A stretch of DNA of 64,000 nucleotides from an archaeon (lineage in GTDB: Archaea > Undinarchaeota > Undinarchaeia > Undinarchaeales > JBDRKL01), in NCBI GenBank assembly GCA_043814055.1, contig JBDRKL010000010.1, positions 85,433-149,432 on the forward strand. Reading direction: 5' to 3'. How positions within the stretch are numbered: position 1 is the first letter of the stretch; the number at the start of each line of letters is the position of its first letter. A model generated the notes under the pieces. It was not told where the DNA came from and made no database searches. It saw only the letters and a list, made by a program, of their open reading frames with translations. Positions 7,544 to 53,701 of the stretch are shown here, piece after piece. Position numbers and translations under genes: made by a program.

Positions 7544-8478
7544 TGGCAAGCTCAAAAACAGGACTTACCCCAGAGGAGCTCAGCGGTTTTCTGCTTGACG
7601 GAAACCGGTTAATCGAGCTCAAGCCAGAGCACAGGCTCCTCTTGTGGCACATATTGGCGGCAAAGGACAGCAAAAAAAAGTTTAGGGCCAATTGGACTCG
7701 GAACTCTGCCAAGATAACAAGCCTTGAAATTGCACGTTCAATCTTAGAATTGAACCAAGAGCTGAAGCTGAACCTGACACACATTGCATTTGTGACAGAC
7801 CTCCTGCGCTCAGGCGTTGCAGACGGATACGAAACGCTCACTCTAAGAGTTTCGCCAAGGGCAGTGTACTTCTTTGGGAGAGAAGGGTGCAAAAAGCTTG
7901 TGCTGAAGAGCAGGCGCATCTGGATAAACAGGCAAAACAAAGCCCAGTGGAGAAAAACAAAAAAATACCTAGCCGATATGAGAGAAAAACTGGGAAATGT
8001 CATAACCGAGTGCGGCGAGGTCCCAAATGCAGGGGAGATCCGAGACAGGAGGTTCAAGAGAAACCGAGTGCCAAACAAAATGCTCAACGAACTGAACGCC
8101 CTGAAAGACCTGGGAAATATTTACAACAACCTTTACAACGAAGGCACAGGATTCTTATTCACAGAACTTCATCTCATATCAATGATGTACGAAAAAGAGA
8201 TTAAAGGAAAAGCCAGCGAGGAGAAACTGAAAAGCGGGCAAGAGAGGGTGGTAATGCTTGTTAATGAGTATAAAAAACTTACCGGGAGCGTACCGACAAT
8301 CAGGATGATCCAAAATCCTATTCACCTGCCAAGCATTGCCAGCGACCGGGCAGAGAAGATAAGAATACTGAATGCCCTGCAAACGCCAGCCTCAAGGCTC
8401 ACTGGGAAAAGATTAAGTAGGATAGATGAGATGAAAGACTGGAGGTCGGCTCTCCGGAGGCTCGGACTAATAGAATGA
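7534..8478 (+). CDS. basic hypothetical protein between nurA and herA
   Basis: 314-aa ORF overlapping both neighbours; start may be ATG 7543. Confidence 0.7.
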   Translation: MQLMASSKTGLTPEELSGFLLDGNRLIELKPEHRLLLWHILAAKDSKKKFRANWTRNSAKITSLEIARSILELNQELKLNLTHIAFVTDLLRSGVADGYETLTLRVSPRAVYFFGREGCKKLVLKSRRIWINRQNKAQWRKTKKYLADMREKLGNVITECGEVPNAGEIRDRRFKRNRVPNKMLNELNALKDLGNIYNNLYNEGTGFLFTELHLISMMYEKEIKGKASEEKLKSGQERVVMLVNEYKKLTGSVPTIRMIQNPIHLPSIASDRAEKIRILNALQTPASRLTGKRLSRIDEMKDWRSALRRLGLIE

Positions 8479-10109
8479 CACAAGTAGGCAAAGTTGATTA
8501 TTTTGACGGCGCAAAGCGAAAATTGTATTTCTTCGTGGAAGAAGAGGACGGAGTAGAGGAGGAAGGATTCTACAAGGTTGACACCCCGACTAAAGTGTTC
8601 TATATCTTTGTCACGAGCCTGAGCGAGCAGCCGCTTGACTCAGAGCTCGGCTCACGCTACTCAAAAGAAGGCTTCTCATACGACCTTGACGAGCGTTTTC
8701 TCCTGTACGCACAGGCGTCAATACTGCTTGAATACCGCAAGGCAGAAGACCACAAAATCGTTGGCTATAAGACTATTCCAAGGCACGGCGCAGGCATATT
8801 TGAGCTTGAGGACTCTGATTTTGACATACTCAAGCTGCCCAAATTGGACTTTGCGAACGTGCGCTCAGGGAGCAAGGAGCTCGCAACAAAAGTCGGGTTC
8901 AAGAAGGAATCATACATCACGCACTGGCTGCTCAGCGGTTGGACAAACTCAGGAAAAACCAACTCTGCAAAAGTTCTGCTTGGGGTAACGCTCAAGGGTG
9001 AAGAGGGTGACAGTTTCGCAGGCGGGGTAGTTATTGACCCGCACGGCGAATATTACAAGGATTTGAAAACAATGAACTCGGACGGCGATGTTCGCCTGGT
9101 TCACATGACAATAAATCCTGAGACAGGTGATTCAAACGAGCGCGCATTGGGCATCCCGCTCAGCATGTTAACTCCAAATGACCTCTACGAGGTCGCGGAC
9201 TTCAACCCTGAGACACAGGGCGCGTTCATGTGGCGCTGCAGGGACTACTTTTGGCGGCTTGAGAAGAGGAATACCCCTGACACGCTCAATATACTTTCCG
9301 CGTCAAAGAACTGGATTGACATGATAATCAACAGCGACCACAAGCTACTGCCTCAGCTCGGCGACGACTACAAAGACTCAACTGGACCGAAAGTGATGGA
9401 TGCTACCAAGCGACGTCTGATGCGCATAATCAAGGATGACCAAAGCGTATGGCTTCCTGAGTACACTCCGATTGTTGAGGACATACTTGCTGGAGTCTCA
9501 CGCGGCGTCTGGTACGTGATTGACGTGAGCTCAATAAGCAACAGCACTACCAAGCTCATAACTTCACTTATTGCATACAAGCTCTTCAAAAAGTACAAAG
9601 ACACAGCGATAAACAACCGCGCGGAGTGGAAGACCTACAAGCCAGCAGGCATTCTGGTTGAGGAAGCGCACAACTACCTCTCATCAGATGAGTCCAGCAA
9701 GGGCAACATAATCGCGAAGATTGCAAAAGAGGGCAGGAAGTTCAACGTGTTCTCTATCATTGTTGAGCAAGATCCGAGCGGCATAGACGAGCGCGTCCTG
9801 AAGCAGATTCACAACAAGATAACGCTCCAGCTCATCCCGGTTGACGCGAGCGCGATTGTGAAAACAACGCCGTACATCGCCGAGCTTGAGAACAAGATAC
9901 CCTATTACCAGACAGGGGAAGGTGTGTTTGTCTCAACAGGCAGTTTCACTTTCGCATTGCCTGTCAAATTCCCGCACATCTCAACCTGGCTTAATAATAA
10001 TTCGCAGAAGTGCAAGGAATGCGACGAAGGCAGGAGCTTTGGGGCGAAAGGGATTTGCGGAAAGTGTTCTGGGAAGAAATTGAAGAAGGACGCGAAAGCG
10101 TTTATGTAA
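8475..10109 (+). CDS. herA: HerA-family ATPase with C-terminal Cys4 motif
   Basis: Walker A GWTNSGKT, IDPHGEY, Walker B ILVEEAHNY, IAKEGRKF, Q.PS.ID; CKEC...CGKC tail. Confidence 0.88.
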   Translation: MTQVGKVDYFDGAKRKLYFFVEEEDGVEEEGFYKVDTPTKVFYIFVTSLSEQPLDSELGSRYSKEGFSYDLDERFLLYAQASILLEYRKAEDHKIVGYKTIPRHGAGIFELEDSDFDILKLPKLDFANVRSGSKELATKVGFKKESYITHWLLSGWTNSGKTNSAKVLLGVTLKGEEGDSFAGGVVIDPHGEYYKDLKTMNSDGDVRLVHMTINPETGDSNERALGIPLSMLTPNDLYEVADFNPETQGAFMWRCRDYFWRLEKRNTPDTLNILSASKNWIDMIINSDHKLLPQLGDDYKDSTGPKVMDATKRRLMRIIKDDQSVWLPEYTPIVEDILAGVSRGVWYVIDVSSISNSTTKLITSLIAYKLFKKYKDTAINNRAEWKTYKPAGILVEEAHNYLSSDESSKGNIIAKIAKEGRKFNVFSIIVEQDPSGIDERVLKQIHNKITLQLIPVDASAIVKTTPYIAELENKIPYYQTGEGVFVSTGSFTFALPVKFPHISTWLNNNSQKCKECDEGRSFGAKGICGKCSGKKLKKDAKAFM

Positions 10110-10114
10110 AGAAA

Positions 10115-10699
10115 ATGGATGATGAAATCTGTTTTAGCAAAGAGGAAGAGGAGATTCTAAAGAGTGTAAAAGAGCTGGGCTCAGCTGAAAAGTTATTGAT
10201 TATTCTGGAGTTACTACAGGATTTGATTTCAAGAAACCTTATTGTTGTAAAGAAATATAGGGCATTTCAAATATATTTGATTAATGGAGCTATGAGGCAT
10301 CTAGCGACTCAGTTCAATCCAGATGACATTGATAGATATGATTTGGATCACCCAACCACCCAAATTACGAATACTAATTTGAGCAGAAAAGAGCGTAATG
10401 TGTTAAAAGGTATGATTTTGTCAAAAAGCTATACCAACTATAGCGTAACCGCAGTTGGTAATATTTACATCTTTATAGCAGGGGCTACGATTCGGCAACT
10501 TGCAAACTTAACTCTTACTGAGATCCGAGTCCTTGAATACCTGACCACAGATAAAGCTATTATAGAGTTTTTAAAAAACAAAAAGAAAAAATTTCCTATG
10601 AACAAATTTATTGTCATTTGTAAGCTTGTGGGGGGTATATCCATGCCATCCAATCTACTTACTAAGCAAACTAAAAAAGCCGCGGAAGCGTTAAAGTAA
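10115..10699 (+). CDS. hypothetical protein (AT-rich)
   Basis: ATG 5 nt after herA stop; no motif. Confidence 0.6.
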   Translation: MDDEICFSKEEEEILKSVKELGSAEKLLIILELLQDLISRNLIVVKKYRAFQIYLINGAMRHLATQFNPDDIDRYDLDHPTTQITNTNLSRKERNVLKGMILSKSYTNYSVTAVGNIYIFIAGATIRQLANLTLTEIRVLEYLTTDKAIIEFLKNKKKKFPMNKFIVICKLVGGISMPSNLLTKQTKKAAEALK

Positions 10700-10820
10700 T
10701 TAAACACCCATAGCCAACCTTAGAGTATTCCTCGCGACCTTTTTCTTTCCCGTTTGTTCAAAAAGCTCGACCAAAAACAATGTTTTAAACACCCATAGCT
10801 AAACGCAAAGTATTCCTTGC
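10700..10820. mobile_element. hairpin insertion with stranded, silently different copy of DUF63 3' end
   Basis: 10700-10735 and 10785-10820 both encode ARNTLRLAMGV* on the - strand; spacer carries GACCTTTTT...AAAAAGCTCGACCAAAAA. Confidence 0.7.
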
Positions 10821-11576
10821 CCCAGGCCCGAGCGTTACGCACAGAATTGCGAACTTAATAAAATTCTTGAATGGGGTATCCCCCTCGGTCTTGTCTATTA
10901 TGTAAAGAGCACCAAGAACAACTATGAACTTGAGCGGTAGCATTACCCACGCGCTGCCTGCGAGGCCGAACAAGTAATTTGGGAGCACGTGCTTCTCGCC
11001 GTAGCCGTAGAAGTCAACACCCACAAAAGTTGAGACCGCGTCAAACATCGCGGCAAGCATTATCGCTGAGTTCAGCGGGGTGAAAATCTTCGGCTTTAGC
11101 TTGTACGCGCCGAACAGCAAAACAGCTATGGCTGCGGTGTAGCTGAGTATCTGCAAAGCTGCTGCGTACTGGGGAAATCGCATATTAATGCCAAACCCAA
11201 AAAGGAGCATGACGCCGATTAGGAACATCAGGTAGTGGTATGGAATTTTCTTCTGGAGCTTACCAAACTCCCAACTGCACAGTAAAGCAGTGAACGTAAT
11301 GCCGAAGACTAAAAAATATATGAGCGGCGTGACGTAAATCGGGGATTTAACAAGCTCGGCGTCGCGCATCACGCGCAGGACCGCGGCGAGCACGATGTAA
11401 GGCAGGGTCGCGAAGAAGAACCTGCCGTTTATGGGTATTTTCATCTTCTGCATAACCCTGTAGAGCCCGAAGACGGCTATGACTAGGATTATAGCGTACA
11501 CTGGAGTGTTGTAAATGTTATAAGGTACGTCATTTTGGAACACCGGGCTGATGAAATACTCGTTTAGGAATCCCAT
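10785..11576 (-). CDS. DUF63-family membrane protein
   Basis: YN.YNT..YA, LRV..DA, DAVSTFVGVD..GYGEKHVLP, LGPGARNTLR. Confidence 0.85.
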   Translation of the reverse strand: MGFLNEYFISPVFQNDVPYNIYNTPVYAIILVIAVFGLYRVMQKMKIPINGRFFFATLPYIVLAAVLRVMRDAELVKSPIYVTPLIYFLVFGITFTALLCSWEFGKLQKKIPYHYLMFLIGVMLLFGFGINMRFPQYAAALQILSYTAAIAVLLFGAYKLKPKIFTPLNSAIMLAAMFDAVSTFVGVDFYGYGEKHVLPNYLFGLAGSAWVMLPLKFIVVLGALYIIDKTEGDTPFKNFIKFAILCVTLGPGARNTLRLAMGV

Positions 11577-11667
11577 TTTTCAGAACTTGTTTTAGGTTGT
11601 TTATATTTCTTTAGGAATAGCCATTAGTGGTTAGCCAACGAACAGCCAAATGCCAAGAGCCAAAAAG

Positions 11668-13794
11668 CTAAGCTGTATCTGGTCCGCTCACCATAAAAAC
11701 CTTTGTAGCCCCGTCAATCTCCTTGTCCCTTTCCAATTTATACAAGTGTCCTGAGACCGCGGCTTCCAAGCGCTCTTCGTGAGTGATTAAGAAAATTTGG
11801 TCAATTAACTTTGGCATTCGGGTCTTAAGCAGCTCAGCGAGCTCGTCTATGCTTTGCGCGTCCAGGTTGTGCGTAGGCTCATCAAGCACAAGCCAGCTCA
11901 AATTAGGCGCCAAAGCCAGAGAAAACGCGATGCGCAATGCAAGAGAAGCCATTGTGCGCTCCCCGCCTGAAACCCTGCCCTCAACGTCATACCAGCCAGC
12001 TGAAGTCTTTGCTCTGAGCACGTAGTCCCCTGCGTCTACAGCAAGTTTAACTGTCTCTATGTCGCCGTAGGGGTACAAAGTACCCCAAATCTCGTCCATA
12101 ACCTCATTTACTACCTCTATAAACTCCTCGCGCAGGGATTCCTGTGTCCTTTGGAGAGCTGTCTGGAACTTTTCCATTCCTTTCTTGGTCTCCCCGGTCC
12201 AGGCAAGGTCTTTCTCGTGCTCTGCTTTCAGGGCTTTTTTGCGCTCAATCTCATCAAGCCGCTTCTTTTTCTCCTCAGCAAGGCTTTGCAGCCCCTCAAG
12301 CTTTGCTCCTATTTCGCTCTGCTTTTTAATCGCTTCTTCATAAGAATTTCTCAGCTCTGCGAACAATTTATCGTCAAACCCGCTCTTATTTGCAAGCTCC
12401 TCAAGCGCTTTGGTTTCTGATTCAAGCTTTTCAAGCGCTGATTTTTCTGTTTTAATCTTTTTCTCAGCGGTTTGAAGGTTCTTCTTCCGCTCAGCAGCAA
12501 GTTTTTTCTGCGTTTCTAACTCAGCCTTGAAGGACTCCAGCTGTTTCTCAAGCGCTTTAATCTCATCAAGCGCCTCGCCAAGCTCCTTGATTTGTGGAAT
12601 ATTCACCTCAATAGTTTTGGCAAGCTCAAGCTTCTCAAGCCCTATGCTCTTTAATCTTTCATTATGCGCACTAAGCAGTTCTTTCTTTTTCCCGCGCTTC
12701 AGGTCAGTCTCGCACAGCGGGCACGAATCCTTGTCGTGGAGTTCATTCACGATGTGCTCGGAGTGCTCTGCGCGGGCAGCAAGGACTTTTAGGTCTTTTT
12801 CTGAATCCGCAATTTCTTTCTTAAGATTGTCTAGTTTTTTTGAAACAGTGTCCGAGTCGCCGTGCAGGTTTATCAGGTCAGCGAGCTTTGTGTTAAGTTC
12901 AAGTTCTTCCTTGTTTTCTTCTGCCGGGGCATCAAGCGTTTTTTGGGACTCAGCGAGCTCAAGCTCAAGGGATTTGATGCTTTCGCTTAATTGTGAAACC
13001 TGCCCCCGCTTGCTCTCAATTTTATTATTAAGCGAGTTCAACTCAGCCTGATTTTTCTCAAGCTTCTTGAGCTCAGCGGAAAGCTTGTCCGCTGCGCCTT
13101 TAAGATTTTTAAGCTCTTCTTTGAGCGTTAGTTCTGCCTCTTTTTGATTGTCAATTTCTGACTTGAGCGCAATCTCTGCTTTCTCATCGTCCTCGCTGAG
13201 CATTTCTTTAATCACTTTCTCTTTTGCAAAATAGCTCTCGTCAAGCATATTTCTGACAGAAGTCGCGGTCTTGCGCGCGGCTTCAAACTTGTCTATGCGA
13301 AGCAGTTTGTCTATTTGAGCCATTCGCTGGCCCTTAGGTATGCTGAGAAAATGGTCAATCTGGTTCTGCTCTGAGTAAACAGCACGCGAGAACAAGTCGT
13401 AGTCAACGCCAAGCAGCTTGCACACCTGCTCCGTGACCCTCTGGGAATTTGGGCCCTCAATGAGCTCGCCGTTCTGCCTTAGCTCAGACACAGTTGTGCC
13501 TTTCCCATAATTTACCTTGCGCAAAACAGTGAATATCTCACCTTTTGCCCCTAGAAATTCAAGTTCAACCTCAGCGCTCTGCGCCTGCTTTGGCTTGCTC
13601 TTTATCACATCGTCAAGCTTGAGTTTCCGCTGGTTGAGCAAAGGGAACGTGCCAAAAAGCCCAAAGCTAAGCCCGTCCATTGCGCTGCTTTTTCCAGAGC
13701 CCATAATGCCGAAGAGCGCGTTGACTCCTTTTGAAAACGTGAACTCAGAGTCCTCGTGTGATTTCCAGTTCTTCAGCTTGAGTTTTACAATCAT
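11668..13794 (-). CDS. rad50: Rad50 SMC-like ATPase
   Basis: GIMGSGKSS, coiled coil with CPLC zinc hook, SGGE signature, LDEPT, ITH. Confidence 0.92.
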   Translation of the reverse strand: MIVKLKLKNWKSHEDSEFTFSKGVNALFGIMGSGKSSAMDGLSFGLFGTFPLLNQRKLKLDDVIKSKPKQAQSAEVELEFLGAKGEIFTVLRKVNYGKGTTVSELRQNGELIEGPNSQRVTEQVCKLLGVDYDLFSRAVYSEQNQIDHFLSIPKGQRMAQIDKLLRIDKFEAARKTATSVRNMLDESYFAKEKVIKEMLSEDDEKAEIALKSEIDNQKEAELTLKEELKNLKGAADKLSAELKKLEKNQAELNSLNNKIESKRGQVSQLSESIKSLELELAESQKTLDAPAEENKEELELNTKLADLINLHGDSDTVSKKLDNLKKEIADSEKDLKVLAARAEHSEHIVNELHDKDSCPLCETDLKRGKKKELLSAHNERLKSIGLEKLELAKTIEVNIPQIKELGEALDEIKALEKQLESFKAELETQKKLAAERKKNLQTAEKKIKTEKSALEKLESETKALEELANKSGFDDKLFAELRNSYEEAIKKQSEIGAKLEGLQSLAEEKKKRLDEIERKKALKAEHEKDLAWTGETKKGMEKFQTALQRTQESLREEFIEVVNEVMDEIWGTLYPYGDIETVKLAVDAGDYVLRAKTSAGWYDVEGRVSGGERTMASLALRIAFSLALAPNLSWLVLDEPTHNLDAQSIDELAELLKTRMPKLIDQIFLITHEERLEAAVSGHLYKLERDKEIDGATKVFMVSGPDTA

Positions 13795-13831
13795 TCGCCC
13801 AGGCTCTAATAAGGCAGAGTAATAAATAAGC

Positions 13832-15100
13832 TTAAGCTTTATTGCCAAAAGCCTGGAACACGTAGTCAAAAATCACGCCGGAGCCGAACATTGCAACGGC
13901 AACGAGCAAGTATATTGGTTCCACAAGCAGCAGCATTGAAATTGCCAGCAAGGATGCGATGCCCGGAACCAAATAGCCAAAAGGCAGCTTGTAGCTAATC
14001 TTAAGGCCTTTCTTCCTGTGGATAGGCATTGACATAAACATCATTAGGTACATCATCATCGCGAGCGCAACGAGGATGTATATGATTTCTTCAAACCCTG
14101 CGAGGAAAACTGCGGCTGACGCAAACACGAATTGCAGTATCAGCGCTATGTGCGGAGTTGCATTCTTTTTGTGAATTCTCATAAGGGCTTTTGGAAACAA
14201 GCCGTCGCGGGCAAGAGCATATGGCAGGCGGGCTGTTGCAACCACCCAGCTATTGAGGCAACCTAATAGAACTATGATTGCACCAACTGCGATTATTATG
14301 CCACCCGGGGCGCCAAGAAAAGCCTCTGCTGCTAGTGCAATTGGATAAAGTGATGTCTTGAGGTGCATTGTTTGGATGATTCCAAGTGTTACAAATATCA
14401 CTGCGCAGTAAAGGATTGTTACGAATATGCTGGAGTAAACGATTGCGCGCGGGATGTCTCTCCTCGGGAACTTTGCTTCCTCAGCAAAATAAGTGATTGC
14501 TTCCCAGCCTATAAAAGGCTCTATTATAAGGACTGACGCTAGGGCAAGAGATGAAATTGTTATGTTTACGTTTGGTGTAAAATTGGACAGGTCAATAAAG
14601 TGCATGCCCCAGGTAATGAAGAACCAAAACACAAGGATTGAGATTGAAGTCAGCAAGTACTGAGCTTTCATGCCCCAATGCAAACCGTTGTAATTGAATG
14701 CTGTAATTAAGGCCAGAACTCCAATTGCTATTGCTATTGATTGCATATGACTTAGATGGACAAAATATTGCAAATAGTAGGAGACCGCCACCGCGAGCGA
14801 TGCAATTGTAACCCAGCTAATTAGCCACGCAAGCCAGCCTGATAAAAATCCTACTCTTTTGCCAAATGCTTCTTTCACGAATTGGTAAGGCCCGCCAGCG
14901 TGCGGATAAATGCTAGACAGTTCTGCCAGGCAGAGTGCCATGAAAATCGTGAGGATGCCGACTTCAAGCCAAACCCAGAACGAGCCAACATCAGCTATTC
15001 CTGCTGCAATCGCAGGCATTACGAATACGCCTGTGCCAATGACAGCACCTATGCCAAAAAAGATTAGGTCAGCGAGGCCTAAGGTGCGCTTAAGCTTCAT
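13832..15100 (-). CDS. APC-family amino acid permease
   Basis: LKRTLGL, IGTGVF, LAELSS.YP.AGG.Y, GWE, EEAK.PRR.IPRA; many TM segments. Confidence 0.9.
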   Translation of the reverse strand: MKLKRTLGLADLIFFGIGAVIGTGVFVMPAIAAGIADVGSFWVWLEVGILTIFMALCLAELSSIYPHAGGPYQFVKEAFGKRVGFLSGWLAWLISWVTIASLAVAVSYYLQYFVHLSHMQSIAIAIGVLALITAFNYNGLHWGMKAQYLLTSISILVFWFFITWGMHFIDLSNFTPNVNITISSLALASVLIIEPFIGWEAITYFAEEAKFPRRDIPRAIVYSSIFVTILYCAVIFVTLGIIQTMHLKTSLYPIALAAEAFLGAPGGIIIAVGAIIVLLGCLNSWVVATARLPYALARDGLFPKALMRIHKKNATPHIALILQFVFASAAVFLAGFEEIIYILVALAMMMYLMMFMSMPIHRKKGLKISYKLPFGYLVPGIASLLAISMLLLVEPIYLLVAVAMFGSGVIFDYVFQAFGNKA

Positions 15101-31771: not shown

Positions 31772-31858
31772 GCCGAGGTGGCACAATCTGGTAATGCGCG
31801 ACCCTGGAAAGGTCGTTTCCTCACGGATATGCAAGTTCAAATCTTGCCCTCGGCGCCA
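31772..31858 (+). tRNA. tRNA-Ser(GGA)
   Basis: CGACC-CTGGAAA-GGTCG, long variable arm, CCA. Confidence 0.95.
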
Positions 31859-32120
31859 ACCTTTTTCCGGCTACGCCGCAAAAAGCTTGACCAAAAAATC
31901 TCGCTTCGCTCGTAATTAATGTTTCTGGCGCCAACCTTTTTATTGGTTCTGTTTTTGAAAAAAGTTTGATCAAAAACTCGCTGACGCTCGTTATGAAAAT
32001 TGATTCTCCCATTTGACCAAAGGCATTCAAATTGCCTGGCAAGGTGGCTTCGGCTTTAGCCGAACGCCGCCTAATGTGCCGCCTGAAGTTGCAGGCGGTT
32101 CTGAATCTTGCCCTCGGCGC
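31857..32120 (+). mobile_element. mosaic hairpin array ending in a copy of the tRNA-Ser 3' end
   Basis: Two CAACCTTTTT...AAAAAG(C/T)TTGA(C/T)CAAAAA units; 32104-32120 identical to 31840-31856. Confidence 0.7.
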
Positions 32121-34184: not shown

Positions 34185-34362
34185 GAAGTTTTTTACAGCT
34201 TCGCTCGCTAAAAAAGCTGGCGAAAAACTAAAGCAGAAACCTAACTCTTAATCTCTATCTCAGCTTTTTTGGACGTTCGCTACACTCACTAAAAAAGCTG
34301 GCAAAAAACCGTGCCGCAATCAAATTTGACAAGCGGCTGTTTAACTCTTGATTTCTATCTCA
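34185..34362. mobile_element. two hairpin units with stranded, silently different copy of rpsJ 3' end
   Basis: 34241-34262 vs 34341-34362 both encode EIEIKS*; CAGCTTTTTT...AAAAAAGCTGGCAAAAAA. Confidence 0.7.
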
Positions 34363-34652
34363 ATATTAACGCCGTCAGGAACCTGTAGCCTCATAACCTG
34401 CCGCATAACCCGGTCATTCGGCTCAACATCAAGAACTCGCTTGTGAATGCGCATCTGCCAGCGTTCCCAGGTTGCCGTGCCGTTGCCTGAAACGCTCTTT
34501 CTTGTTGGTATCTTAAGAATTTTAGTAGGTAGTGGAATAGGGCCTGCGTAATCAACCTTGCTCTCGCCTGCTATGTATTTAATCTGACTGCAAATCTCAT
34601 TGAGCTGATTTATGTCAACGCCACTGAGTCTGATACGCGCTTTAGTTGTCAT
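34341..34652 (-). CDS. rpsJ: 30S ribosomal protein S10
   Basis: GPIPLPTK, RKS..G.GTATWERWQMRIHKR. Confidence 0.97.
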   Translation of the reverse strand: MTTKARIRLSGVDINQLNEICSQIKYIAGESKVDYAGPIPLPTKILKIPTRKSVSGNGTATWERWQMRIHKRVLDVEPNDRVMRQVMRLQVPDGVNIEIEIKS

Positions 34653-49291: not shown

Positions 49292-49636
49292 ATGAAAAAC
49301 AAGCAACAAGCAGAAATTGCCACATTACTAATTGGCGCAACTTCCTTGATTTTTGTTACATATTTATGGACAACACCATTTATCTTAACCGCGATTTTGA
49401 TTGCCCTCGGAGTTTTAATGCTCGGGCTTTCCAAGCGGCTTGATGACATTTTGCTGTTTATTCTAGCAGGAGTAAGCGGAGCTCTTGCAGAAATTTATGG
49501 AATATCCCACGGCGCCTGGGCTTATGCAAATCCAACCTTCTTTGGCATCCCAATCTGGCTACCGATTCTTTGGGGAGTTGCAGGGCTGTATATGAGGAAT
49601 CTGCATAGTATGATTAAAAGATGTATAGAAAAATGA
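49292..49636 (+). CDS. small membrane protein
   Basis: AEI.GI..GAW.Y..P..FGIPIWLP.LWG. Confidence 0.75.
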   Translation: MKNKQQAEIATLLIGATSLIFVTYLWTTPFILTAILIALGVLMLGLSKRLDDILLFILAGVSGALAEIYGISHGAWAYANPTFFGIPIWLPILWGVAGLYMRNLHSMIKRCIEK

Positions 49637-49710
49637 GTCCCCTCCCCAGGATTTAGGAACGTCCGCCTGCTTGCGGACGAAAAGCAGCTTCGCTTAAACA
49701 CTTAGAAATT

Positions 49711-49884
49711 TGGTCCCCTCCCCGGGATTTGAACCTGGAACCTGCCGGTTTCTGCACGATGCGTATCCTTTGCTGTGCACAGGGCAATTGTTGCCCCGGC
49801 AACAGGTTAATCAGCTACACATCGTGTACGCGCAAAGCACGTGACGTTCTACAGCCGGCCGCTCTACCGTTGAGCCAGGAGGGG
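49711..49884 (-). tRNA. tRNA-Tyr(GUA) with 99-nt intron at 37/38 (49750-49848)
   Basis: GCCGG-CTGTAG|intron|A-CCGGC, BHB helix CTGT/GCAG, CCA. Confidence 0.92.
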
Positions 49885-50793: not shown

Positions 50794-51023
50794 GCCGATG
50801 TAGCTCAGCGGTTAGAGCGCCAGACTCATAAGTTCGCTTGTGAGTTATGACCCTTCGGGGAATGATAAGCGCGCTAAGACATCTGGAGGTCACGTGTTCA
50901 AAACAGCGGCAAATTCCGCTGGCAAATTGGGCCGCGTTCGGCTTCGCCGAAGCGACCCTGCTCGCATCCTGCGAGAAAGCCAAAAGCGAGTTTGCTGTTG
51001 AGAAATTCACGTCATCGGCACCA
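50794..51023 (+). tRNA. tRNA-Met(CAU), elongator, with introns at 37/38 (50831-50880) and 59/60 (50903-51006)
   Basis: GCCGATG/CATCGGC, CCAGA/TCTGG, ACGTG/CACGT; removing both inserts gives a normal cloverleaf. Confidence 0.88.
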
Positions 51024-51200
51024 AACTTTTTATTTGTTATATTTGTCCAAAAAGTTTGATCAAAAAACTCGCTATCGCTCGGTTGTTTGAATTTGACCGA
51101 AGGCATTGAAATTGCTTAGCAGCGCTGCATCACAAGTTATTTTGCAGCGCAACTTTCCTCCGGAGTTTGCCGGAGTGATCAAAAAACTCGCTTCAGCACA
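51022..51200 (+). repeat. mosaic hairpin array after tRNA-Met
   Basis: CAAACTTTTT...AAAAAGTTTGATCAAAAAACTCGCT; modules shared with 32011-32041 and 52916-52954. Confidence 0.7.
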
Positions 51201-52973: not shown

Positions 52974-53048
52974 GCCTCGGTGGCTCAGTGGTAGAGCGGC
53001 TGTCCTGTAAACAGCAGGTCGGGAGTTCAATTCTCCCCCGGGGCTCCA
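52974..53048 (+). tRNA. tRNA-Thr(UGU), C at position 33
   Basis: GCTGT-CCTGTAA-ACAGC, U73, CCA. Confidence 0.9.
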
Positions 53049-53051
53049 AAT

Positions 53052-53219
53052 CAAACTTTTTAGTAAAAAAGTTTGATCAAAAACAAAAAGAAGAAACACA
53101 TTAACCTTTAACCCACAACAAACTTTTTAGTAAAAAAGTTTGATCAAAAACAAAAAGAAGAAACACATTAACCTTTAACCCACAACAAACTTTTTAGTAA
53201 AAAAGTTTGATCAAAAACA
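53052..53219 (+). repeat. 2.5 x 67-bp tandem repeat (palindromic core plus stranded gene end)
   Basis: CAAACTTTTTAGTAAAAAAGTTTGATCAAAAACA at 53052, 53119, 53186. Confidence 0.9.
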
Positions 53220-53239
53220 CAATACACCTCTGGCACAAT

Positions 53240-53701
53240 TTACCCCCCTTTCACCCACATTAAAATAGCCCAGCCGAGTTTTGAGAAGATTAAGTAATTA
53301 AATAATATAGAGAGCATTGCAAACTTGACCAGGCGGAACCAGTTTGAGCCCATAAACATCCAGATTATGTTTGAGACAATGTTGTAGCCAATCACAATCA
53401 TCATTGAGTTGAGCAGGAAGTTCTTCGCGGTTATGTCAAAGAACGTTGCGGCGAAGAGCGTGCCTGCAAGAGTTATGCCCATAATGAACAATCCCTGGAT
53501 TTCATAAGGGAACAGGACGAACGAGATTATCAGGATTGAGATTGCGAAGAGGAAACCCCACAGCGGGCCGAATGCGTAGGTCAGAATCAGGCCGAATGAG
53601 AGCCAGATGCCGACGCCCTGCATCTCAAAGCGGCGCATCCAAAACTCAAGGAAGCCGCCAATCATCACGAGCCCGATGAGCGCGAGGAGTTGGTAAAACA
53701 T
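53240..53701 (-). CDS. multi-pass membrane protein
   Basis: About 6 hydrophobic helices, FGP.WG motif reminiscent of ECF S components. Confidence 0.7.
   Translation of the reverse strand: MFYQLLALIGLVMIGGFLEFWMRRFEMQGVGIWLSFGLILTYAFGPLWGFLFAISILIISFVLFPYEIQGLFIMGITLAGTLFAATFFDITAKNFLLNSMMIVIGYNIVSNIIWMFMGSNWFRLVKFAMLSILFNYLIFSKLGWAILMWVKGG

Follow-up and report, generated by a model that had tools for sequence, protein, structure and literature searches.

Does a gene end that stands twice in direct succession, spelled differently and encoding the same peptide, record a local duplication or the meeting of two working alleles? This question is raised by the gene for a DUF63 membrane protein in a 64,000-nt stretch of contig JBDRKL010000010.1 (positions 85,433 to 149,432) from the undinarchaeal assembly GCA_043814055.1. 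We refer to the whole stretch as the window and to the genome analysed as G000 (979,685 bp in 14 contigs, 82% complete, contamination estimate 0.21%). The DUF63 gene is complete to its C-terminus, as its protein matches PF01889 (E = 3.4e-69) over residues 2-263 and profile positions 3-269 of 269. Behind its stop codon lie a short spacer and then a second, stranded gene end (copy 2), which reads ARNTLRLAMGV* exactly as the live end does (copy 1; Table 1).

The two copies are identical at 30 of 36 bases. After the first codon both read AGG AAT ACT, and both close with GCT ATG GGT GTT TAA. Between these blocks copy 1 (10820-10785) has TTG CGT TTA and copy 2 (10735-10700) has CTA AGG TTG, while the first codon is GCA in copy 1 and GCG in copy 2. 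The differences fall at positions 3, 13, 15, 16, 18 and 21 and touch codons for Ala, Leu, Arg and Leu. All six are silent, as a first-pass annotation made from the sequence alone had stated, and the two-base changes that it listed in Leu and Arg codons are there as well, in one Leu codon (TTG/CTA) and in the Arg codon (CGT/AGG). The longest exact word common to both copies is 15 nt. Since the spacer is not a multiple of three, copy 2 stands in another frame than the DUF63 open reading frame (ORF); being also placed behind the stop codon, it therefore lies outside that ORF. Its own stop codon (10700-10702) directly abuts the stop of a convergent ORF, here called B, which ends at 10699. The first codon of copy 2 directly follows the right arm of a palindrome, and AAAAAGGTCGCG is also found in another copy of the same palindrome family at C2:8801-8845 (contig 2 of G000), which likewise continues GGTCGCG. 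Judging by this resemblance, the Ala codon (GCA/GCG) may belong to the palindrome and lie outside the repeat, so that the count may be five differences in three codons. A paralogue as the source of copy 2 was considered and rejected, G000 holding a single DUF63 match.

Doubled ends of this kind recur across G000. We compared the last 60 nt of 1030 gene models with the 400 nt downstream of each, using ungapped alignment (+1/-2) and one permutation of the pairs. A downstream copy of the 3' end reached a score of at least 15 in eleven gene models and in none after permutation; at 13 or more there were 18, against 2. The DUF63 pair scored 18, above the permuted maximum of 14; what the scan sees there is a 33-nt repeat starting at AGG. 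Seven rows were dropped, namely C13:17121 (a short ORF in repeats), C4:42634, C4:82249 (an opposite-strand ORF in the spacer of archease) and four matches of 13-17 nt. By their Pfam names, the 11 loci examined are DUF63, FttA/aCPSF1, DUF357, PheRS-alpha, a fused primase, TP_methylase (which we read as diphthine-synthase-like), GCD14/TrmI, S10, archease, thermosome and PGK. In a protein-level scan, 6 of 1645 ORFs had tail copies downstream, 7 copies in all. Among the 40 tRNA genes, 8 likewise have their 3' end repeated 48-90 nt downstream with a score of at least 11, seven of them at 14 or more (permuted maximum 12). All of these tRNA copies start in the T-loop and run to the CCA, sometimes with up to 6 nt of flanking sequence. 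In sum, about 19 loci carry doubled ends, inside contigs and always at the 3' end of a gene or tRNA, and their spacers are mosaics of a few hairpin modules common to intergenic regions. The duplicates measure 11-84 nt and the relics 5-28 codons, even though the scan reached 400 nt downstream; in 8 protein-gene cases the end of the duplication falls at the stop codon or within it. Copies of 5' ends upstream of genes numbered 5 at a score of at least 15.

Comparison with relatives shows how such a block can arise. The S10 pair in the window is identical at 19 of 21 positions, both differences being silent, with TAA as the live stop and TAG as the stranded one, and another hairpin module stands twice in its spacer (34198-34228 and 34279-34309). 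In G003, a member of the same order, S10 carries a 121-nt block composed of an exact 41-nt copy of the gene end and an 80-nt filler with two hairpins. Its congener G007 is without the block, and the TAG stop of G007, the ancestral one, is kept by the downstream copy in G003. This filled and empty pair shows duplication in place, or from a near-identical donor. In G005 (L074) an exact 24-nt copy of the S10 end lies 201 nt downstream. S10 is thus affected in 3 of the 11 genomes of the order with an examinable S10 3' end (G000, G003 and G005), with different lengths and fillers. Elsewhere in G003 we found 3'-end copies at 4 of 21 tRNAs and, among protein genes, at 1 of 451; a control genome, G004 (230 kb, 252 gene models), had none at a score of at least 13. 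Insertion-duplication at 3' ends is thus recurrent in this order and strongly enriched in G000, along with the hairpin modules. Near-identical pairs are also present in G000 itself, at PheRS-alpha (23/23), the primase (32/33), tRNA-Pro (22/22), tRNA-Ser (20/20) and tRNA-Met (17/17), the PheRS-alpha and primase pairs being identical save for the last codon and stop.

Several of these loci have features of their own. At three near-identical pairs (C4:143550-143670, C7:14630-14740 and C7:33880-33980) the live stop is TGA and the stranded one TAA, the last sense codon differs, and the stranded TAA overlaps or nearly touches the ATG of the next gene. As the last codon and the stop both differ at these pairs, the inserted DNA seems to supply both. 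The fused primase is one 429-aa ORF (C7:13350-14639) that matches PF01896 and PF04104, the small and large primase subunits. Stacked relics, that is, two successive stranded ends with a spacer each, occur at TrmI (C13:25880-26100), TP_methylase (C7:33886-34100) and tRNA-Pro (C12:133084-133290), and the two stranded copies at TrmI differ from each other mostly silently. The duplicate at C7:110480-110740 reaches across the PGK stop into GAPDH, of which it includes the first 35 nt; between the live GAPDH start and its stranded counterpart 5 changes are silent and 1 is non-silent, and the stranded PGK end, which holds a GGAGG motif before GAPDH, has 5 non-silent differences. A 174-nt gene for tRNA-Tyr in the window (49711-49884, minus strand), presumably with an intron, was found only by the tRNA scan with the intron option. 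Its stranded 3' end (49636-49654, 17/18 nt) lies 56 nt downstream behind a hairpin spacer and overlaps the stop of a convergent ORF. An excess of TAG stops in stranded copies was also considered (4 of 11 loci against 20% genome-wide) and is not significant.

The recurrence of this architecture bears on the simplest technical explanation, an assembly chimera of two strains or species joined at the DUF63 locus. The fragmentation of the assembly and its incompleteness would allow for such an error, but we regard it as highly improbable. The exact words shared by the copies do not exceed 15 nt, the junction between spacer and copy 2 offers no word that could mislead a graph assembler, and the contamination estimate is low. 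Moreover, the same architecture stands inside contigs at about 19 loci, always at a gene or tRNA 3' end, and recurs at S10 in the independently assembled G003 and G005.

The differences between live and stranded ends are mostly silent. Pooled over 12 rows at the 11 loci (to which archease contributed just 5 codons and S10 none), 38.5 differences fell on 75.5 silent sites and 21.5 on 287.5 other sites, corresponding to a pS of 0.51, a pN of 0.075 and a ratio of 0.15. At DUF63, FttA, DUF357 and TrmI silent differences are saturated, with few or no amino-acid changes. The differences are also clustered. The DUF63 pair is identical over 9 nt, diverged over 9 and identical over 15; the DUF357 pair has 18 identical, 54 diverged and 15 identical nucleotides; and the FttA/aCPSF1 pair is identical over 34 nt and then shows 8 differences in 24 nt. 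Five of the six DUF63 differences lie within 9 nt, which are three consecutive six-fold codons (L-R-L). Outside this patch the codons (AGG, AAT, ACT, GCT, GGT and GTT) are the same in both copies, save for the first Ala, and seven other silent sites of the pair are unchanged.

These patterns can be set against a pure in-place duplicate, produced by a long target duplication or a template switch when the palindrome was inserted, in which point mutations then accumulated in the live copy and only silent ones survived. The S10 pair of G003 and G007 documents such an origin, near-identical pairs are common, and the phenomenon tracks the expansion of hairpin modules in G000, the controls having 0 of 252 (G004) and 1 of 451 (G003) affected protein genes. 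However, simulated neutral decay of an in-place duplicate left all changes silent with P = 0.002 for six differences and P = 0.007 for five, which counts against this explanation if the stranded copy is neutral. Five changes in 9 nt with seven other silent sites unchanged are unlike independent point mutations, the FttA mosaic is at odds with uniform accumulation, and the reason why a stranded copy should stay frozen is not known. In a variant of this explanation, silent changes may have been favoured in that they broke up the 33-nt direct repeat or reduced pairing with an antisense 3' untranslated region (UTR) of B. Overall, we consider an in-place duplicate without further exchange quite improbable for DUF63.

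The DUF63 end of other genomes tells what a second allele could contribute. Of the 12 other members of the order, which includes the named Undinarchaeota/Naiadarchaeales, 11 have an orthologue that ends with the same or a very similar peptide, and RNTLRLAMGV* is conserved across the order and beyond, so that any working DUF63 allele would encode it. A degenerate pattern for the last nine residues was matched in 10 outside genomes of Thermoplasmata, Aenigmatarchaeota and Undinarchaeota, nine of which encode NTLRLAMGV* and one (L032) NTFRLAMGV*. Their ends share 25-32 of 36 nt with copy 1 and 27-30 of 36 with copy 2. The 30 of 36 identities between the two copies fall within this range and are therefore no more than the common peptide alone can give. 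In contrast, none of the 10 genomes shares all six variable codons outside L-R-L with either copy. We therefore read the two copies as one sequence with a foreign-looking patch of 9-11 nt. The last 21 nt of the live end (10785-10805) are the same as those of Thermoplasmata locus L028, the best of the 10, where the protein is only 39% identical; this identity is probably due to chance under a common peptide.

The spacer, which the first-pass annotation had equated with the family palindrome, contains a member of that family but is unique as a whole within the window. Its left arm alone (19 nt) recurs in the genome, at C4:126347 and C2:8830. Searched with the pattern TTGRTCRANCTTTTT-N3-30-AAAAAGNTYG, the family has 22 copies in G000 and the reversed control pattern none; it is present in 5 of 41 genomes including G000, the four others holding 1-2 copies each. 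A tRNA 3' end directly adjoins 8 of the 22 copies, at -2 to +3 nt. The last base of the palindrome at DUF63 overlaps the first base of copy 2, so that the junction lies 0 nt past the right arm; at two other family loci it lies 5-7 nt past the arm, and the left borders of the inserts vary among loci. Copy 2 of DUF63 and both DUF357 copies start with a common 11-mer directly after homologous palindromes, a word that occurs 5 times in the genome where 0.5 would be expected from its length alone. Oligo-T runs terminate archaeal transcription. On the sense strand a TTTTT run begins just past DUF63, 9 nt beyond its stop, and on the opposite strand one begins 46 nt past the stop of B; with T5 runs on both strands, the palindrome family thus stands at sites where archaeal transcript ends are expected. 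Going by these sequence features, the most likely role of the spacer, which separates the convergent genes DUF63 and B, is in forming transcript 3' ends. The hairpin itself is weak, with 9 of 10 arm pairs, a 15-nt loop and -8.6 kcal/mol (z = +0.29 against shuffled sequences).

Other members of the family were noted in the window, two in tandem at 31857-31973, directly after tRNA-Ser (31772-31858), and one at 51022-51063. At 52974-53246 a tRNA-Thr gene is followed by three tandem 67-nt units, each with a short family member, and the same layout of a tRNA with tandem units is found at C8:32558-32720. A 9-mer common to copy 2 and other family arms, AAGGTTGGC, is probably a chance match, as it is the usual encoding of R-L-A in other archaea.

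Taken together, we tentatively favour an insertion-duplication scar at the DUF63 end that later underwent a short-patch exchange with another functional DUF63 allele. By analogy with the other loci, a block made of a fresh last 33-36 nt of the gene and the 49-nt spacer with its terminator-like palindrome would first have been placed ahead of the original end. The upstream copy would have stayed on the gene body as the live end, and the old end, joined to the downstream DNA, would have been stranded. The pattern of differences suggests that 9-11 nt over Leu-Arg-Leu of one copy were then swapped for those of another functional allele, through short-patch homologous exchange and possibly in the same event that brought ORF B. 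Differences that are silent only, two-base changes included, would be accounted for because the patch came from a functional allele. The claim of the first-pass annotation that the two ends derive from different functional alleles is thereby kept in part: silent-only change is unlikely for a neutral in-place duplicate and the pooled ratio of pN to pS is low, but the replacement was not wholesale, since the copies use the same codon at six variable positions and only a short patch looks foreign, and the near-identical duplicates elsewhere and the filled and empty S10 pair point to in-place duplication as the first step. Copy 2 itself is probably a non-coding relic that does nothing.

Several observations weigh against this two-step history. 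A conversion patch of 9-11 nt that happens to cover just the three six-fold codons is an explanation fitted ad hoc to a single locus, and the last 15 nt of the copies are identical, which is awkward if the right part of copy 2 came with B. No donor allele was found: the nearest DUF63 protein (P0003) is 74% identical, and the 33-mer of copy 2 has no exact match in the species genome collection, where amino-acid identity is at most 55%; a metagenome scan for close relatives returned one distant locus, with 39% identity over 103 residues. At some loci the differences run the other way, with 0 silent and 5 non-silent at PGK, and 0 and 2 at the primase. The terminator reading is weakened by the DUF63 hairpin, whose stability does not exceed that of shuffled sequence, and the S10 filler of G003 occurs only once in that genome, so what is inserted need not be a repeat element. 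Finally, no insertion machinery was found in the 82%-complete G000: Y1 transposase (PF01797) and TnpB (PF07282) gave 0 matches with positive controls, other transposase families not being searched; tyrosine integrase (PF00589) gave 0 matches, serine recombinases not being searched; and Cas1 gave 0 matches.

Table 1. Positions of the DUF63 gene end, its surroundings and the S10 comparison (window coordinates unless a genome and contig are given).
Feature	Position	Strand	Remarks
HerA-like helicase	8475-10109	+	Pfam PF01935
ORFan B	10115-10699	+	194 aa from ATG at 10115; convergent, between HerA and copy 2
Copy 2	10700-10735	-	stranded gene end, 36 nt, also ARNTLRLAMGV*
Palindrome family member	10735-10774	-	arms 10760-10769 and 10735-10744; pattern match
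Spacer	10736-10784	.	49 nt between the copies; T5 runs on both strands
Copy 1	10785-10820	-	live last 11 codons and stop, ARNTLRLAMGV*
DUF63 live gene	10785-11576	-	263-aa membrane protein; ORF and Pfam
Rad50-like gene	11668-13869	-	Pfam; upstream of DUF63, conserved neighbour
S10 (PF00338)	34341-34652	-	last 21 nt repeated 100 nt downstream, copy at about 34241-34264
S10 filled/empty pair	G003:C3:45229-48534 vs G007:C4:3765-7070		L070 (filled) vs L069 (empty)

The neighbourhood of the doubled end is marked by ORF B. In relatives of the order HerA and DUF63 are convergent, their stops abutting at L003 and L004 and lying about 11 nt apart at L007-L009, and B is missing from 10 other DUF63 loci. 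The GC content of B is 0.33-0.38 against 0.49-0.52 in its flanks, at the 3rd percentile of gene GC. Its protein has no Pfam family, its best PHROGs match has E = 0.12, and no viral locus was found for it. A search of the 12 other genomes of the order gave nothing convincing, the single match being one of 34 residues in G006 (E = 0.001) with two stops inside. Among 5.8 billion proteins it matches itself alone, and in Atlas it has sub-threshold matches only. We asked whether copy 2 is the remnant of a former overlap with B and rejected this, because the frame of B meets a stop 8 codons past its own. A foreign downstream gene at every locus was likewise rejected, as B is the sole GC outlier.

The main rival to a scar followed by short-patch exchange also draws on B. 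It holds that foreign DNA displaced the 3' end in one step, in the manner of homology-facilitated illegitimate recombination (HFIR), one side being anchored by homology and the other joined illegitimately or through microhomology at the palindrome base. Either an incoming DUF63 gene with its own spacer replaced the resident gene save for its last 33-36 nt, or, in the most economical version, a foreign fragment with B and the last 33-36 nt of the neighbouring DUF63 gene of the donor was captured between HerA and the resident palindrome. Copy 2 abuts the B stop without a spacer, as HerA and DUF63 do at L003 and L004. B is a low-GC ORFan missing at this locus in relatives, the 30 of 36 identities lie within the 25-32 of 36 seen between the copies and 10 archaeal DUF63 ends, and the junction lies at the right arm of the palindrome here and 5-7 nt past it at the two other family loci. 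Moreover, the stacked ends at TrmI, the diphthine-synthase-like gene and tRNA-Pro recall the displaced-end arrays that one paper describes for type VI secretion system (T6SS) and Rhs loci (PMC5361080). On the other hand, all six variable codons outside the 9-nt patch are common to both copies, where saturated alleles should differ (0 of 10 genomes share them). The relics are always short (5-28 codons), and random illegitimate joins should leave long ones too. The palindrome family is expanded in G000 (22 copies against 0-2), hence the spacer looks native and only the B-capture version is comfortable. Finally, for a foreign DUF63 end to land 49 nt away from the resident one, homology would have to guide it, and such guidance normally gives a clean single end. 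One-step displacement is thus possible, if on the unlikely side.

Could copy 2 be functional instead? It might be a real protein end reached through RNA splicing or ribosome hopping, or an antisense element in the 3' UTR of B directed against DUF63 mRNA. It is intact and encodes the same peptide, its frame is open back through the spacer, and a B transcript must cross it before the first T5 run. However, use of copy 2 would yield the same protein, so there would be nothing to select, and copy 1 is where the DUF63 profile ends. Elsewhere the stranded copy is directly preceded by a stop codon (primase) or has non-silent changes (PGK). A structured RNA was rejected as well, with 0 Rfam matches in 10000-11700 (E up to 1) and a 141-nt region that folds no better than its shuffles (z = -0.16). 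A function for copy 2 is therefore very unlikely.

The scar with its later patch exchange, and the displacement model that rivals it, can both be compared with known systems. At Rhs, CDI (contact-dependent inhibition of growth) and T6SS effector loci, 3' ends are displaced, a process for which HFIR has been proposed (PMC5361080). According to that account, a new end arrives together with downstream DNA in front of the old one, which is left behind as an orphan 3' fragment, and repeated events stack the orphans, as at TrmI, the diphthine-synthase-like gene and tRNA-Pro here (PMC5361080). The ends described there encode different toxins with immunity genes, whereas here the same housekeeping peptide is encoded and the relic spans 5-28 codons (PMC5361080). 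Also unlike those loci as the source presents them, the inserts here are hairpin modules of 49-200 nt without cargo, and tRNA genes are affected too (PMC5361080). HFIR itself has been described in transformable bacteria, where a homologous anchor and an illegitimate join can trap foreign DNA and duplicate or delete adjacent recipient sequence (PMC3240628). HFIR is not known from this group of archaea, and it predicts neither joins clustered within 84 nt of the stop nor an association with hairpins. Of the features that such an event should leave, an end from another functional allele would fit the silent-only differences and the pN/pS of 0.15, yet the copies differ only in a 9-nt patch and no donor was found; foreign DNA at the junction could be seen in B, a low-GC ORFan, but B lies outside the repeat pair and the spacer looks native.

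The doubled ends also resemble products of mobile elements. Partial direct repeats of the 3' ends of tRNA or protein genes flank elements integrated at the attachment (att) sites of tyrosine recombinases. Like att sites, the loci described here have a direct repeat of a gene 3' end with the live copy upstream, and tRNA copies that start from the T-loop. In contrast to att-flanked elements, only 49 nt and no gene lie between the DUF63 repeats, and the 82%-complete genome has 0 matches to PF00589 (serine recombinases were not searched); furthermore, about 19 different targets share the same hairpin modules, something that a site-specific att system would rule out.

A second parallel is with extragenic palindromes of prokaryotes, namely repetitive extragenic palindromic (REP) sequences, bacterial interspersed mosaic elements (BIMEs) and miniature inverted-repeat transposable elements (MITEs) (PMC3184786, PMC2229807). 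Like REP and BIME sequences, the modules are short, multi-copy, extragenic palindromes at 3' ends, are arranged in mosaics and have expanded in one genome (22 copies). A Y1 transposase of the type of REP-associated tyrosine transposases (RAYT) was not found in the 82%-complete G000. The duplications here are long and of variable length, 11-84 nt, rather than short and fixed, the left insert border is undefined, and the G003 filler is single-copy. With regard to MITEs, we found a dispersed palindrome core (22 copies) but no defined termini, no fixed short duplication and, of the transposases searched, neither Y1 nor TnpB in the 82%-complete G000.

In the atp6 gene of Allomyces, a fungal mitochondrial gene, insertion of a mobile ORF brings a replacement C-terminus and strands the resident one. 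As here, the end is doubled, the upstream copy is functional and in frame, and the differences are mostly silent, in Allomyces because the copies come from different lineages. However, an endonuclease ORF lies between the ends in Allomyces, while a 49-nt spacer alone separates them here and B stands outside the pair. A diversity-generating retroelement was also considered and rejected: the differences are A/G, T/C, G/A, C/A, T/G and A/G, adenines account for 2 of 6 in either copy and the protein is unchanged; reverse transcriptase was not searched.

One further proposal concerns the scars as a class. This lineage of small-genome archaea might have an undescribed copy-and-paste process that places hairpin or terminator modules precisely where tRNA genes and protein genes have their 3' ends, a suggestion that we regard as unlikely on present evidence. 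In such a process the last 11-84 nt of the gene would be re-synthesised from a template, sometimes the homologous chromosome of a diverged relative; dissociation would follow immediately beyond the hairpin, and the renewed join would be made upstream of the old end. If true, a genome that is 93% coding could in this way add DNA between its genes and leave them unbroken, and the events would stay readable as a datable fossil record of exchange between lineages, at about 1% of protein genes and 20% of tRNA genes.

Genes abut or overlap in these genomes, therefore any insertion should be harmful. The scars represent a tolerated route to spacers, as a doubled gene end leaves both neighbours an intact terminus. 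They are also an annotation hazard, since the relics, at 33-84 nt, can be mistaken for att sites, small ORFs or assembly errors. Stranded ends that combine saturated silent differences with intact coding are sequence evidence that diverged working alleles met in one genome, and evidence of such exchange is otherwise hard to get for uncultivated DPANN archaea. Should the process act specifically at 3' ends, which the T-loop and stop-codon boundaries suggest, it would point to an undescribed link between transcript 3'-end formation and DNA rearrangement.

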